Shown piece after piece: positions 57,793 through 63,756 of a stretch of 64,000 bases of DNA (its first letter is position 1; each line of letters opens with the position of its first letter). The stretch is from a virus. The notes under the pieces are model-generated. The model was given only the letters and a program-made list of their open reading frames with translations, ran no database searches and was not told where the DNA came from. The position numbers were made by a program, and so were the translations under genes. The stretch is from the IMG/VR virus record IMGVR_UViG_3300033047_000016; one strand, given 5' to 3'.

Positions 57793-58719
57793 TCACTTGA
57801 CGACTGCTGCGTTGGCGATGCCACGCAGACGTGATGCAGCGCGACCGTGCATGACAGCCATTCCGACCAGCCATTCGACACGAGTACGGAGGACAGGTGC
57901 ACTTTGCAGTTCACCAAGGTCACGTACTTCCATCATGCCGTTTTGCAGGCCAACAACACCTTCGTCGGACATGTTGACACAGTAGATGGACGTTGCAGTA
58001 GCGGTTGCGCCACCAGCACCAACTTCGTCAAAGGAGACGATCTGGTTACCCTGTGCATCGTAGTCAATGACTACAATTGGCAGGCCATCAAATTGTGTTA
58101 CACGACGACCGAATTCGTCCTGTGCGAAGGTGATATAACCACCGATGTTCGGATCAGTTGCGGCTGCGGAAAGCAGGTTACGCATCTTCTTCGACATAAT
58201 CAGGTGTGTGGGATCATCCACTTGGTCAATCAGGTCACGCAGATTGCTGATCTTCAGTGCGTCGCCGCCGTCTGTTGCACCGTTTTCCAGAAGCTGGTCG
58301 CCTTGGATACGGATACGCAGGCCGTCAAACTCACGAGGATCGGCGGTGGAGTCACCGTTGATCATCTTTGCGCCGATGGTCAGGGACAATGCCTTGACTT
58401 TCTTCAGTTCATGTGCACCACGGACATCCTCAGACGTCATTTTCAGCGTTGCCAGATCGACGTCAAGATCGCCACCTGAGATACGCAGACGCTCAGTCTC
58501 CGGGTTCATGATTCCAGCCGATGCGGTATATCCTTCACCGACACCACGGAATGCTACGCCCGGAAGGCTACCTTCCATGTTGTATACATACGCGCCACCA
58601 TCCACATTCAGGAATTGGGTGACTCGCAGCAGGTCGCTCGTGCGAGCGAAATGCTCAATAACAGTGTTCCGCAGAACTTCGCCTGAGTTGAGCTTAGAGG
58701 CTTCAAACAGAGTAATCAC
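57793..58719 (-). CDS. Major capsid protein
   Basis: LPGVAFRGVGEGY, GGDLDVD, INGD...EFDGL, RTRVEW; GTG start with AGGAG. Confidence 0.9.
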   Translation of the reverse strand: MITLFEASKLNSGEVLRNTVIEHFARTSDLLRVTQFLNVDGGAYVYNMEGSLPGVAFRGVGEGYTASAGIMNPETERLRISGGDLDVDLATLKMTSEDVRGAHELKKVKALSLTIGAKMINGDSTADPREFDGLRIRIQGDQLLENGATDGGDALKISNLRDLIDQVDDPTHLIMSKKMRNLLSAAATDPNIGGYITFAQDEFGRRVTQFDGLPIVVIDYDAQGNQIVSFDEVGAGGATATATSIYCVNMSDEGVVGLQNGMMEVRDLGELQSAPVLRTRVEWLVGMAVMHGRAASRLRGIANAAVVK

Positions 58720-60132: not shown

Positions 60133-60386
60133 GACGTGGTGCACATAATGGGACCTAATCCCGTTGGGCAGTCATGTCGATTACAACTGTACGACATGGA
60201 CCCTTTCAATTCTATCCCACACTTTGGGCATGTTGGTGAATTCAGCATCGGTGGTGCTGGATATGTTGGTGCCGGATAAAAATCGTCTCGTGGGTGCTCT
60301 AAATAATTATTATGCTTCCGCTGCACCGCAACCAGTTCTTCTAATAGTTCTTCTATGCGCCGTAGCCTATCTGAAAGCTTACTCAT
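60129..60386 (-). CDS. Hypothetical Cys-rich protein
   Basis: CPKC...YSC...DCP; overlaps portal stop. Confidence 0.6.
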   Translation of the reverse strand: MSKLSDRLRRIEELLEELVAVQRKHNNYLEHPRDDFYPAPTYPAPPMLNSPTCPKCGIELKGSMSYSCNRHDCPTGLGPIMCTTS

Positions 60387-62061
60387 CGTCGTCGGTCTCA
60401 TCATCATCATCAGACGATTTCATTTCCGCGTCAATTTGCTTGGTCAGCGCACGGGCATCTTTAGTCTGCTGTTGTACTCCCGGCGTGCTTGGTTCACCCG
60501 GAGACGCTTTGACGTCTTCGGAGGCCATACCAAACTCAGCCCGCATCAAGCGGAATTCGTGGAAGGCGTCTGCATCTGGGAAATTCTTCATTCTCGCCAG
60601 AACATCTACCATGTTGGGGAATTGATTCGACTGCTTCAGGAGGCTCTTATATTCTTCCTCATCCATCCATTCTGGAATTACTTCCGCGCGACTTAGATAA
60701 TCGTAGACAACGTCCACGGGAATAATGCCATCCATATACATTTGGTGGATGGCGCGGAATTCTCTCGCGCCAGCGTCTTTGATTAAGAAGTCACGGTTCA
60801 ATTCAAATGTTATTGCTTTGATGGTAGATTTAGACGCGTTGCTCCAATCCGCCCACCACTGCAATATTTCGGTCACGGCCTCATCAACAGTATCCGCAAT
60901 ATTGAGCAACAGTGTTTGCTCGTTGCGCTCTTGCATCACAAGGGAGTTATCTGATTCGGCTGCGCCACGTGATGATCCGGGCATCATGCGTCCACCGATG
61001 GATGCAATCTGACCTTCTTTTGATCGCAGGATATTTTCCAAATGTTGTAGCCCGCGCCCGTTAAATTCTAGCAGCTTGGCTTCTTCATCTTTATCCAATA
61101 TCCACACGACATCAGGGCCGACCTCATAGTTGCCTTGATCTTGTGAACTATCATTTTGCACGACAAAGATCGGACTACCTGTGTAAAACAGAGCCTGCTC
61201 TAACTGTGCATAAGACATGTAGTGGGAAAAGTTTAATGTGGCAATATCCAAGATCGGCGGCTTCTGCACGTCTGGATAATTTGTGAACGGGCCAATTATC
61301 TTGAATGGAATGTAATCGAGCGTCTTACCGCGCACGGTAGGCGTGACTATTAGGTCTGGTGCTGCATCAATATCTGGGATCGCTGCGGCGTTATCGGATT
61401 CGGAATACACGAATTGGCTATAAACCAGATCACCACTAGCGTCTTCTTCCAACGTCAGTACCCGGAACCTAGATTTGAAGTCGTACGGCGACCAGTGACC
61501 TTCTCTGGAATAGTAAATCTCACGCAGGGTAACCTTCGACAGGACCCACGATCCATTAACCTCTGACATCTGCCAGTCGAGAATATTCTCAGCCGTGTAA
61601 CACGAAATGTATGGGTCTCCGACACCATTAGGATCAGCGTCAACCAACATACCATAGCGACCTACAGCCAAGACTTCCTTTACAGCAGTCTTTGACATTA
61701 GGTGGAGGGACATACCCTCTTTCGTGATTCTCTTTGAAGACTCTTTTAGTTTTGGGGTGAACCCAGCTATTTTAGGTAGCCTACGGAATACAGTACCGTA
61801 CAAGGCATTAAGTGTCCGCGCGGTCATGTTGTAAAACACAGACCGACGTAAATAAGCTTTGTATTGAGTGGCGTTGTGCGTTGCTTGGCGCGGGAGGTAT
61901 TTCTCCCCCTTGCGCTTCACTTCGATTTCACCTATCTCTGCATCGCGAATCATTTCCCAATGTGGGGACCAGTACGCGTAGTCTGGATGCAATACTGGGG
62001 ATGCGCGATAGGGAACGGACAACGCCGCCCTAGTGTCTGGATTTGGTACTGAACTACTCAT
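60379..62061 (-). CDS. Portal protein (DUF4055-like)
   Basis: HPDY...KYLP...Y..YL.R..FYN.T..T; GRYGMLVD; AENILDW; PPILDIA.LN..HY. Confidence 0.9.
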   Translation of the reverse strand: MSSSVPNPDTRAALSVPYRASPVLHPDYAYWSPHWEMIRDAEIGEIEVKRKGEKYLPRQATHNATQYKAYLRRSVFYNMTARTLNALYGTVFRRLPKIAGFTPKLKESSKRITKEGMSLHLMSKTAVKEVLAVGRYGMLVDADPNGVGDPYISCYTAENILDWQMSEVNGSWVLSKVTLREIYYSREGHWSPYDFKSRFRVLTLEEDASGDLVYSQFVYSESDNAAAIPDIDAAPDLIVTPTVRGKTLDYIPFKIIGPFTNYPDVQKPPILDIATLNFSHYMSYAQLEQALFYTGSPIFVVQNDSSQDQGNYEVGPDVVWILDKDEEAKLLEFNGRGLQHLENILRSKEGQIASIGGRMMPGSSRGAAESDNSLVMQERNEQTLLLNIADTVDEAVTEILQWWADWSNASKSTIKAITFELNRDFLIKDAGAREFRAIHQMYMDGIIPVDVVYDYLSRAEVIPEWMDEEEYKSLLKQSNQFPNMVDVLARMKNFPDADAFHEFRLMRAEFGMASEDVKASPGEPSTPGVQQQTKDARALTKQIDAEMKSSDDDDETDDDE

Positions 62062-62912: not shown

Positions 62913-62984
62913 TGGTCAGGGTATCGGGGATCGAACCCGATCAGCAAGCTTCCAAAGCCCACGCCGTCACCAGAACATACCCTG
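62913..62984 (-). tRNA. tRNA-Pro(UGG), non-canonical short D-arm
   Basis: C1-G72, A73, CCA; loop TT-TGG-AA; TTCGATC T-loop; 72 nt. Confidence 0.8.
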
Positions 62985-62991
62985 TATAAAG

Positions 62992-63066
62992 TGGAGCCTC
63001 CAAACGGAATCGAACCGATTTCTCTGGATTACAAAACCAGCACATCACCATTTATGCTTTGGAGGC
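62992..63066 (-). tRNA. tRNA-Thr(UGU)
   Basis: Cloverleaf, loop TT-TGT-AA, encoded CCA. Confidence 0.9.
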
Positions 63067-63150: not shown

Positions 63151-63226
63151 TGGTGCTGGCGGTGGGAGTTGAACCCACGACTTCTGCTTTACGAGAGCAG
63201 CGCTCTGGCCACTGAGCTACACCAGC
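63151..63226 (-). tRNA. tRNA-Thr(CGU)
   Basis: Canonical cloverleaf, loop CT-CGT-AA, CCA. Confidence 0.93.
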
Positions 63227-63282
63227 GAGTGCCTGTTACAACGGTCATATAAAGCCTTGTGACCGTTGTAACGGGCATAGTT

Positions 63283-63357
63283 TGGTCTCCCCGGAAGGAA
63301 TCGAACCCTCGATTTTCGGTTTAGAAGACCAAAACCCGATAAACCATCGGCGGAGAG
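63283..63357 (-). tRNA. tRNA-Arg(UCU), non-canonical core
   Basis: 7-bp acceptor, loop CT-TCT-AA, T-arm, CCA. Confidence 0.82.
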
Positions 63358-63361
63358 ATTA

Positions 63362-63436
63362 TGGCACCCTCGGAAGGAATCGAACCTTCAATTCTCAGCT
63401 TAGGAGGCCAAAACCCGATAGACCATCGGCGAGGGT
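63362..63436 (-). tRNA. tRNA-Arg(CCU), non-canonical core
   Basis: 7-bp acceptor, loop CT-CCT-AA, T-arm, CCA. Confidence 0.82.
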
Positions 63437-63567
63437 CAGGAAGACATTACGACACGTTCAATGTCGCAACGGTTGATGCCAATATCGCTAAGTTCGCGCT
63501 CTGACATGCGGTAAAGTTGATCGCGCGCTTTGTTGCGTGCGAGGTAACGGCGGATAGCTGAAAACAT
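63436..63567 (-). CDS. DUF1127 (YjiS-like) small protein, 43 aa (not in ORF track)
   Basis: AAGGAG RBS; MFSAIRRYLARNKARDQLYRMSERELSDIGINRCDIERVVMSS matches L..(L/M)S(D/E)..L.DIG..R.DI. Confidence 0.88.
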   Translation of the reverse strand: MFSAIRRYLARNKARDQLYRMSERELSDIGINRCDIERVVMSS

Positions 63568-63668: not shown

Positions 63669-63756
63669 TGGCGGAGGGCGGAGGAATCGAACCCCACACG
63701 TTTCCGTGCGAACCGCTTTCCAAGCGGACCCCGCCGACCAGACAGGATCGCCCTCC
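63669..63756 (-). tRNA. tRNA-Ser(GGA), 8/4 fold
   Basis: Long variable arm, G73, loop TT-GGA-AA, 8-bp acceptor plus 4-bp T-stem. Confidence 0.88.

Follow-up and report, generated by a model that had tools for sequence, protein, structure and literature searches.

Two tRNA-Arg Genes With a Compact Core

The window analyzed here is the whole 64,000-nucleotide (nt) stretch of a viral genome held in IMG/VR as record IMGVR_UViG_3300033047_000016, and its end covers the structural-gene region of a large tailed phage. In this region, a tRNA array is located upstream of the portal gene and on the same strand. The array includes two tandem genes for arginine tRNAs, with the anticodons CCU and UCU, whose core departs from the standard cloverleaf and which are the subject of this analysis. 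Delimited by sequence and minimum free energy (MFE) folding, they are laid out as follows:

63436-63362, minus strand: tRNA-Arg(CCU), compact core, 72 nt plus encoded CCA
Parts of tRNA-Arg(CCU), minus strand: body 63436-63365; acceptor 5' strand 63436-63430; D hairpin 63429-63415 (CCGAU/GGUCU/AUCGG); linker G 63414; anticodon arm 63413-63393 (7 base pairs, loop CUCCUAA); variable loop 63392-63390; T arm 63389-63373; acceptor 3' strand 63372-63366; discriminator G 63365; CCA 63364-63362
63358-63361, minus strand: 4-nt spacer UAAU between both Arg tRNAs (sequence)
63357-63283, minus strand: tRNA-Arg(UCU), compact core, 72 nt plus encoded CCA
Parts of tRNA-Arg(UCU), minus strand: body 63357-63286; acceptor 5' strand 63357-63351; D hairpin 63350-63336 (CCGAU/GGUUU/AUCGG); linker G 63335; anticodon arm 63334-63314 (7 base pairs, loop CUUCUAA); variable loop 63313-63311; T arm 63310-63294; acceptor 3' strand 63293-63287; discriminator A 63286; CCA 63285-63283

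With only 4 nt between them, the CCU and UCU genes are laid out as a single polycistronic unit. The same CCU-then-UCU tandem occurs on a related contig, L007 (5234-5301 and 5309-5376), with a spacer of 7 nt.

Both the MFE and the centroid folds of the two tRNAs recover the cloverleaf that an earlier note, made from the sequence alone, had proposed, with one additional G-U pair within the D loop. A 7-base-pair (bp) acceptor stem is followed directly by the D stem, without the connector at positions 8-9: the 5-bp stem CCGAU/AUCGG begins at position 8, pairs C8 and C9 with G22 and G21, and closes a 5-nt loop (GGUCU or GGUUU). One linker G leads into a 7-bp anticodon stem with a 7-nt loop that contains U33 and A37; a 3-nt variable loop, a 5-bp T stem with the loop UUCGAUU and, finally, the discriminator and CCA complete the molecule. 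This arrangement is confirmed by 92-93% pairing among the homologues described below. The two copies differ at 14 of 72 positions, and every pair is kept. At acceptor pairs 1, 2, and 5 and at the innermost pair (7) of the anticodon stem, both sides change between the copies and pairing is retained, which bears out the claim that acceptor stems and anticodons differ in a compensated manner. The D arms are the same in both copies except for one loop base, and the window alone therefore says nothing on the D stem.

Standard tRNA finders pass over both genes. By default, ARAGORN reports tRNA-Pro(UGG), tRNA-Thr(UGU), tRNA-Thr(CGU), and tRNA-Ser(GGA) in the array, but neither Arg gene and nothing else in 63283-63436, and Rfam at its own thresholds recovers only the two Thr genes of the array. 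The CCU gene reaches 16.8 bits with the Rfam model RF00005, a partial match, against a gathering threshold of 29; for the UCU gene, the best match in the Rfam clan is tRNA-Sec, with 23.6 bits against a threshold of 47. Two conventional folds were considered and rejected. A tRNA-Sec or (8/4)-like fold of the UCU gene leaves many pairs broken at its 23.6 bits. For a canonical cloverleaf, ARAGORN scoring, which had been suggested as a check, gives no call by default and, at relaxed thresholds, only poor forced folds with a mismatched acceptor and D stems of G-U pairs; moreover, the canonical D register pairs at chance level.

Covariation Supports the Re-wired Fold

A covariance model (R1) was built from the window pair and a second one (R2) from the 12 best relatives that read AGA/AGG (AGR) codons, and base pairs were counted on the resulting alignments. 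These alignments, a check of the fold proposed in the earlier note, include up to 47 distinct relatives, and covariation is present among them:

Alignment A4: 12 distinct sequences; 92.2% of cells paired; 20 of 24 pairs changed on both sides
Alignment A5: 29 distinct sequences; 92.5% of cells paired; 22 of 24 pairs changed on both sides
Alignment A6: 47 distinct sequences (45 Arg, 2 Met); 93.4% of cells paired; 23 of 24 pairs changed on both sides

None of 500 shuffles reaches the observed values for any of the three alignments, a count that overstates significance, since the alignments are fitted to the model structure and contain many related sequences. When the 3' partners are slid by one to three columns, pairing falls to 38-52% in A5 and A6 (39-51% in A6) and to 34-52% in A4; taken over all slid controls, the range is 34-57%.

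The D helix is where the re-wired and the canonical fold differ most directly. In A6, pair 8-22 is formed in 42 of 47 sequences, and pairs 9-21 (CG, UA, GC) and 10-20 (GC, AU, CG, UA) are formed in all 47. The objection that the D arm might be canonical after all, or the helices free of covariation, is not borne out: in A5, the register 8-12/18-22 is 85.9% paired, compared to 52.6% for the canonical register (10-25 to 13-22), and the canonical pair 13-22 is paired in only 2 of 29 sequences. A separate count, independent of the model alignment, places the canonical register at 55%. RNAalifold, which was given the model-fitted alignment and no structure, returns an acceptor stem directly followed by the pairs 8-22, 9-21, and 10-20. 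Slid controls, independent count, and RNAalifold thus point the same way, toward the predicted re-wired fold.

The acceptor and T helices are 99.7-100% paired in A6. In the long anticodon helix, 37 of 44 sequences retain the outermost pair, which occurs as five pair types, and 34 of 46 retain the pair next to it. Locus L136, for example, has C-G and G-C in the long stem where the window has U-A and U-G/U-A. The layers equal to 27-43 and 28-42 are often A-A or A-G mismatches in the L003 type and in a group of 68-nt tRNAs. Judged from these alignments, the general rule is an anticodon helix of six to seven layers, possibly with an internal loop, of which the window pair, L136, and most members reading CGN codons carry the clean form.

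A Wider Family of Compact tRNA-Arg Genes

We define the compact-core tRNA-Arg family by a 7-bp acceptor stem, a D stem from position 8, GG five nt past the acceptor stem, a linker of 0-3 nt, an anticodon helix of six to seven layers, a variable loop of 2-4 nt, a 5-bp T stem, and an Arg anticodon. The window pair shows all of these features and provides the top matches to R2 (86.6 and 85.8 bits); tRNA-Arg(CCU) is also the best match to R1. In phage Felix O1, R2 recovers ordinary tRNAs only, with a Gly-like tRNA scoring highest (40 bits). A scan of all fetched loci (numbered L001 and onward) gave 31 distinct compact Arg tRNAs with the anticodons ACG, CCG, UCG, UCU, and CCU. In total, 47 distinct tRNAs of this shape were collected, 45 of them Arg tRNAs covering all five anticodons and two Met tRNAs; their sources are phage contigs, both related and unrelated, six cultured DSS3P8-like roseophages, and dense tRNA arrays of bacterial assemblies. 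Many members have the same architecture with a 4-bp D stem (e.g., CCAG-CGGAA-CUGG), one linker nt, a 6-7-bp anticodon stem, and a 3-nt variable loop. The distinct, selected tRNA class that had been claimed for the window is therefore supported and proves broader: 45 distinct tRNA-Arg genes have the architecture 7/0/4-5/5/1/7/3/5, and all of its helices covary. Of the 47 collected tRNAs, 31 escape default ARAGORN and two more are mis-named by it. A full-text literature search returned no published description of compact-core phage tRNA-Arg, which is no proof of absence.

Among cultured phages, DSS3P8 carries two such genes, both absent from its GenBank annotation:

L001:19038-19107 (KT870145 18070-18139), minus strand: compact tRNA-Arg(CCG), 70 nt
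L001:20681-20750 (KT870145 16427-16496), minus strand: compact tRNA-Arg(ACG), 70 nt

Homologues of the ACG gene are present in six cultured roseobacter and Rhodobacter phages and are annotated in DSS3_MAL1 alone (1/6). A covariance-model scan of five of these six genomes (DSS3P8, RpAliso, RcXuper, DSS3_MAL1, MD18) found two 70-nt compact genes in each, and vB_RpoS-V10 has an identical copy of the ACG gene. With relaxed ARAGORN settings, an extra compact tRNA-Ala(UGC) is called in DSS3P8 (L001:22705-22778).

When one genome per prokaryotic species was scanned for the pattern, 45 matches resulted, 12 of which are compact tRNA-Arg genes. Nine of these 12 lie in dense arrays of 7-27 tRNA genes (L163, L164, L166, L167, L168, L178, L180, L182, L200), from assemblies labelled Mycobacterium alsense, Gloeobacterales, Polyangiaceae, Burkholderiaceae, and others. 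The term "phage tRNA class," used in the earlier note, is thus right in that the family is found in phages, but too narrow, since it is not strictly confined to them. In the same arrays, several Trp, Ala, Cys, Thr, and Met tRNAs also have their anticodon three positions early and, going by this spacing, may be compact as well. Three Solirubrobacterales metagenome-assembled genomes (L172, L197, L198; two on megabase contigs) contain lone 69-nt tRNA-like genes with the D hairpin CCGG-CGGAU-CCGG, a normal T arm, and an odd anticodon region (…GAUAUCGCAAUUGGGG…); default ARAGORN is silent on them, and there is no other tRNA within 8 kb.

Replacement of a Canonical AGR tRNA at the Portal Locus

Relatives of the window locus were sampled through contigs with a gene for a related portal protein and through contigs with the same T-arm motif. 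At the site upstream of the portal gene, a canonical tRNA-Arg(UCU/CCU) is present in DSS3P8, L131, L137, L138, and L142, and a compact tRNA-Arg in L002/L009, the L003 type, L005, L006, L007, L010/L133, L135, L136, and L141. At the portal-linked loci examined, compact and canonical AGR tRNAs never occur together. In its acceptor and T-arm frame, the tRNA-Arg(UCU) of the window shares 26-27 of 32 bases with the canonical tRNA-Arg(UCU) of DSS3P8 and L131, compared to 15-16 of 32 with compact CGN tRNAs. Because of this shared frame and the one-or-other occupancy of the site, the compact AGR genes seem to have arisen from the canonical AGR gene by remodelling, or as mosaics of it, and to have taken its place.

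The exact D-arm pattern of the window had no match in IMG/VR, and this variant is so far unique to the phage studied here. A blastn search of the window pair and two related AGR variants against 50,697 cultured phage records found no compact AGR tRNA and at most partial T-arm or anticodon matches to ordinary tRNA-Arg genes.

Two further observations concern the same group of contigs. Relaxed ARAGORN calls an 89-nt tRNA-Trp(CCA) with its anticodon at position 36 in three of them (L003:383-471, L004:2357-2445, L011:1556-1644), which, if the calls are right, would be either a Trp tRNA of unusual length or a tRNA carrying an insertion. The tRNA island of L006 includes a tRNA with the amber-reading anticodon CUA (L006:187-260).

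Elbow Contacts, Arginine Identity, and Decoding Features

GG is found at positions 13-14, five nt past the acceptor stem, in 40 of 47 sequences, and most other rows are alignment gaps or one-base shifts. Two tRNAs (L006, L007b) have the D loop CUGAGA and the T loop UUUGAUU where their relatives have CUGGGA and UUCRAUU, i.e., G19:C56 is replaced by A19:U56. This co-change is what one would predict from continued docking of the D loop on the T loop at the elbow; it probably reflects one event, since L006 and L007b share their T arm. Further marks of working tRNAs are kept: U33, purine 37, G53-C61 in all 47 sequences, a TTCRANY T loop, and the encoded CCA.

Bacterial arginyl-tRNA synthetase (ArgRS), as known from Escherichia coli and Thermus thermophilus, recognizes C35, U or G at position 36, A20, and A or G at position 73. 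The anticodons CCU and UCU supply C35 and U36, and the discriminators G and A agree with this set. At the place of A20, the situation is different, as discussed below.

Comparison With Known Irregular tRNAs

Compared to canonical class I tRNAs, the window pair has the 7-bp acceptor stem, the 5-bp T stem with G53-C61, the T54-Psi55-C56 loop, G18-G19, and the 7-nt anticodon loop with U33 and R37, and departs from this class in its connector, D-stem register, anticodon-stem length, variable-loop length, and Rfam score. The nearest canonical counterpart, tRNA-Arg(UCU) of DSS3P8 (KT870145 20440-20512), shares the site upstream of the portal gene, the anticodon, and 26 of 32 acceptor and T-arm bases; in contrast to the window pair, it contains U8-A9, its D arm consists of a 4-bp stem and a 9-nt loop with GGA, its anticodon stem has 5 bp and its variable loop 5 nt, and every tool finds it. 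The compact Arg(CCG) and Arg(ACG) tRNAs of the DSS3P8-like phages resemble the window pair in the 7-bp acceptor stem, the lack of a connector, a 5-nt D loop (CGGAA), one linker nt, a 6-7-bp anticodon stem, a 3-nt variable loop, and a 5-bp T stem. They differ in reading CGN codons, in keeping A20, in a D stem that is one pair shorter (4 bp), and in their acceptor and T frame (15-17 of 32 bases shared).

Outside this family, the design has two known parallels, tRNA-Pyl and mitochondrial tRNA-Ser(UCN), and the earlier comparison with both was apt, as they have the same core design (PMC7609411), although they are unrelated to the phage tRNAs. tRNA-Pyl of the Methanomethylophilus alvus type has 0-1 connector nt, a small D loop, a 3-nt variable loop, and a compact, L-shaped core, and its elongated anticodon stem is in some species interrupted by an unpaired base or small loop (PMC7609411). 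Although it lacks a connector and its elongated anticodon stem is broken, the M. alvus tRNA-Pyl itself functions in cell-free translation (PMC7609411). The core of the window pair matches in all four of these traits: connector length, small D loop, elongated anticodon stem, and 3-nt variable loop. However, tRNA-Pyl has a CUA anticodon, a 6-bp anticodon stem (7 bp in the phage pair), neither G18-G19 nor T-Psi-C, and its own synthetase, PylRS. The phage pair keeps GG and TTCRA (TTCGA in the window), carries the Arg anticodons CCU and UCU, and has no sequence relationship to tRNA-Pyl; no dedicated synthetase was seen, and no search aimed at pylS was made. Mammalian mitochondrial tRNA-Ser(UCN) of "type I" likewise has a small D loop and a 3-nt variable loop; its connector is shortened, its anticodon stem extended, and the G18-G19/T-loop elbow retained (PMC7609411). 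Unlike the phage pair, it is organellar, has one connector nt, a 6-bp anticodon stem, and serine identity, and works in the specialized mitochondrial translation apparatus. The (8/4) tRNA-Ser, tRNA-His, and allo-tRNAs (Mukai et al., PMC5389517) are irregular tRNAs from the same kind of phage tRNA cluster, but their (8/4) or (9/3) acceptor/T branch is altered and they have long variable arms, whereas in the Arg pair the branch stays 7/5, the variable loop has 3 nt, and it is the core of D, anticodon, and variable regions that is altered.

Probable Decoding of AGR Codons and Alternative Explanations

Our preferred explanation, to which we assign a probability of roughly 0.7, is that the products of both genes are genuine L-shaped elongator tRNAs, which receive arginine and serve the phage by reading AGG (CCU) and AGA/AGG (UCU). 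According to this model, the start of the D stem right after the acceptor stem would pair positions 8 and 9, and G18-G19, exactly five nt past the acceptor stem, would still dock on the T loop. The anticodon helix would be extended to six to seven layers by pairing of the nucleotides before position 27 with the first variable-loop nucleotides, which would leave a 3-nt variable loop. Unpaired core nucleotides would thereby be traded for base pairs at a roughly constant number of stacked layers between anticodon loop and elbow (7+1+5 vs. about 5+1+4+2), and with this layer count kept, EF-Tu and the ribosome should accept the molecule in the way they accept tRNA-Pyl. Nothing departs from the standard in the 12-bp acceptor/T branch, the anticodon loop, the elbow pair, or CCA. 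If the genes are expressed and their products arginylated by the host ArgRS, the likely benefit is a supply of AGR decoders, the usual role of phage tRNAs. This is the simplest role, because the window has a G+C content of 49%, AGA and AGG make up 14.9% and 7.4% of the Arg codons in its open reading frames (AGR 22%), and roseobacters, the hosts of cultured relatives, are GC-rich.

Several observations weigh against this explanation, in addition to the limits of the shuffle counts. The codon-supply argument is indirect, being drawn from the hosts of relatives. The folding energies of the two tRNAs have z-scores of only -1.6 and -1.4 against shuffles and are not usable as evidence, so that structural support comes from the homologues. 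The anticodon stem of tRNA-Arg(CCU) holds three G-U pairs, and the closest relatives (L002 and L003 types) have an internal loop in the middle of this stem instead of a clean 7-bp helix. Most importantly, the window pair lacks A20: its D loops, GGUCU and GGUUU, present a U where bacterial ArgRS reads A20, and charging is therefore the main uncertainty for this pair. The remark on A20 in the earlier note is correct for the window, but most relatives keep GGA (at least 28 of 47), and GGU is found in the window pair and the L003 type.

The poor scores and missing A20 might also suggest that the genes are tRNA look-alikes with a role outside translation, such as decoys that titrate a factor, primers, regulatory RNAs, or uncharged mimics, and other irregular tRNAs are indeed charged but unused, or never charged (PMC5389517). 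We consider this improbable. All features needed for decoding are conserved, from the 7-nt loop with U33 and R37 and the exclusive use of Arg anticodons to the 12-bp acceptor/T branch, the compensated elbow pair, and CCA; the anticodons diversify over all Arg codon boxes, and the genes substitute for a canonical AGR tRNA instead of being added to it. That they are decaying pseudogenes of a canonical tRNA-Arg, with an accidental fold, would agree with the silence of standard finders and the weak folding z-scores, but appears highly implausible and already contradicted by the covariation: substitutions between the window copies spare every pair, the 47 relatives keep their helices through compensatory changes, and the canonical D register pairs no better than expected by chance.

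A different proposal concerns the reason for the compact core, which might hide decoding tRNAs from host factors that read the tRNA body, providing spare Arg tRNAs that survive host tRNA destruction. Candidate factors would be nucleases acting at the D arm, variable loop, or elbow, and modification or quality-control enzymes (a tRNA without U8 has no s4U8). Published work (PMC10264068, PMC11555353, PMC13096335, PMC12803027) shows that phage tRNAs can counter tRNA-cleaving defenses and rescue infection and that Septu cleaves tRNA-Tyr in its variable loop; for mycobacterial tRNA arrays with divergent "anticodon domains," an anti-defense role is under discussion. The fold is found almost only in Arg tRNAs (45 of 47 model matches, with a model trained on Arg) and is spread over unrelated phages and mobile tRNA arrays, which looks like an advantageous module that is spreading. 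Compact and canonical genes were swapped at one site at least once, and the compact AGR genes are nearer to canonical AGR than to compact CGN genes, which suggests repeated conversion. On the other hand, the anticodon loops (CUYCUAA) are ordinary, nothing in the window ties the Arg genes to a defense context, and a nuclease or enzyme aimed at the tRNA-Arg core was not identified in this analysis. Evasion is thus rather unlikely as the principal explanation; it is compatible with decoding, not exclusive of it. Tentatively, and still on the doubtful side, phages and mobile tRNA arrays of many bacterial phyla might even share one distinct, or repeatedly re-invented, Arg tRNA that is functional on the ribosome and unrecognizable to body-reading host factors, i.e., a nuclease- or modification-proof spare. 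Ordinary decoding of AGR codons fits the data better than evasion or a decoy role, since the compact and the canonical form of the AGR tRNA are interchanged at one syntenic site and AGR codons account for 22% of Arg codons.

As a structure and as a family, the compact tRNA-Arg is well supported, and its function is, from sequence comparison, unproven. If the decoding model is true, standard bacterial translation would routinely accept tRNAs that lack the 8-9 connector and combine a 7-bp anticodon stem with a variable loop of 3 nt; this design is described in PMC7609411 for tRNA-Pyl and animal mitochondria only. Phage tRNA inventories would also be undercounted, given the default ARAGORN misses among the collected tRNAs (31/47) and a compact Arg(ACG) gene that is unannotated in five of six cultured DSS3P8-like phages. 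This raises the question of how ArgRS, RNase P, EF-Tu, and modification enzymes handle the re-wired core, whether changes in the body, beyond those in the anticodon loop, shield phage tRNAs from tRNA-directed defenses, and why Arg tRNAs especially take the compact form. For the CGN members, Ruegeria pomeroyi DSS-3 and its phage DSS3P8 provide a ready laboratory system. Moreover, if the body does evade host factors, compact tRNAs would be natural scaffolds for engineered orthogonal tRNAs.

Genomic Setting and Neighboring Genes

The major capsid gene (57793-58719, minus strand) has 74-76% DNA identity to DSS3P8, vB_RpoS-V10, MD18, and DSS3_MAL1, which are Ruegeria/Roseobacter phages. The other features around the Arg pair are:

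60379-62061, minus strand: portal gene, downstream of the tRNA run
62913-62984, minus strand: tRNA-Pro(UGG), compact type, downstream in the same tRNA run
62992-63066, minus strand: tRNA-Thr(UGU), canonical, downstream in the same tRNA run
63151-63226, minus strand: tRNA-Thr(CGU), canonical, downstream in the same tRNA run
63436-63567, minus strand: open reading frame of 43 amino acids, DUF1127 (Pfam PF06568, E 6e-11), directly upstream of tRNA-Arg(CCU)
63669-63756, minus strand: tRNA-Ser(GGA), 88 nt, 8/4 type (Rfam tRNA-Sec model, 45.5 bits, threshold 47)

The last base of the DUF1127 stop codon is base 1 of tRNA-Arg(CCU), and the Arg tRNAs therefore probably share a transcript with this reading frame. 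DUF1127 is a small RNA-associated protein gene adjoining the tRNA pair. The tRNA-Ser(GGA), 230 nt upstream of the Arg pair, has a long acceptor stem and a 4-bp T stem and belongs to the 8/4 tRNA-Ser type known from alphaproteobacterial phages (Mukai et al., PMC5389517).

The tRNA-Pro(UGG) is compact as well: its D hairpin (UGUU-CUGGU-GACG) abuts the acceptor stem, its variable loop has 3 nt, and its 6-bp anticodon stem includes three G-U pairs; Rfam scores it at 27.1 bits against a threshold of 29. Homologues in L003, L005, and L136 keep this shape, and their 6-bp anticodon stems covary (GUGGGC/GCUUGC vs. CUCCGC/GCGGGG).

An intrinsic terminator at the D hairpin of the UCU gene, which together with GUUUUGG looks terminator-like, was considered and rejected, as such matches occur at chance level in the region. 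The gap between tRNA-Arg(UCU) and tRNA-Thr(CGU) is filled by an 18-nt inverted repeat (63230-63277; 94% complementary, 12-nt loop), which may form a processing or terminator-like hairpin within the tRNA array.

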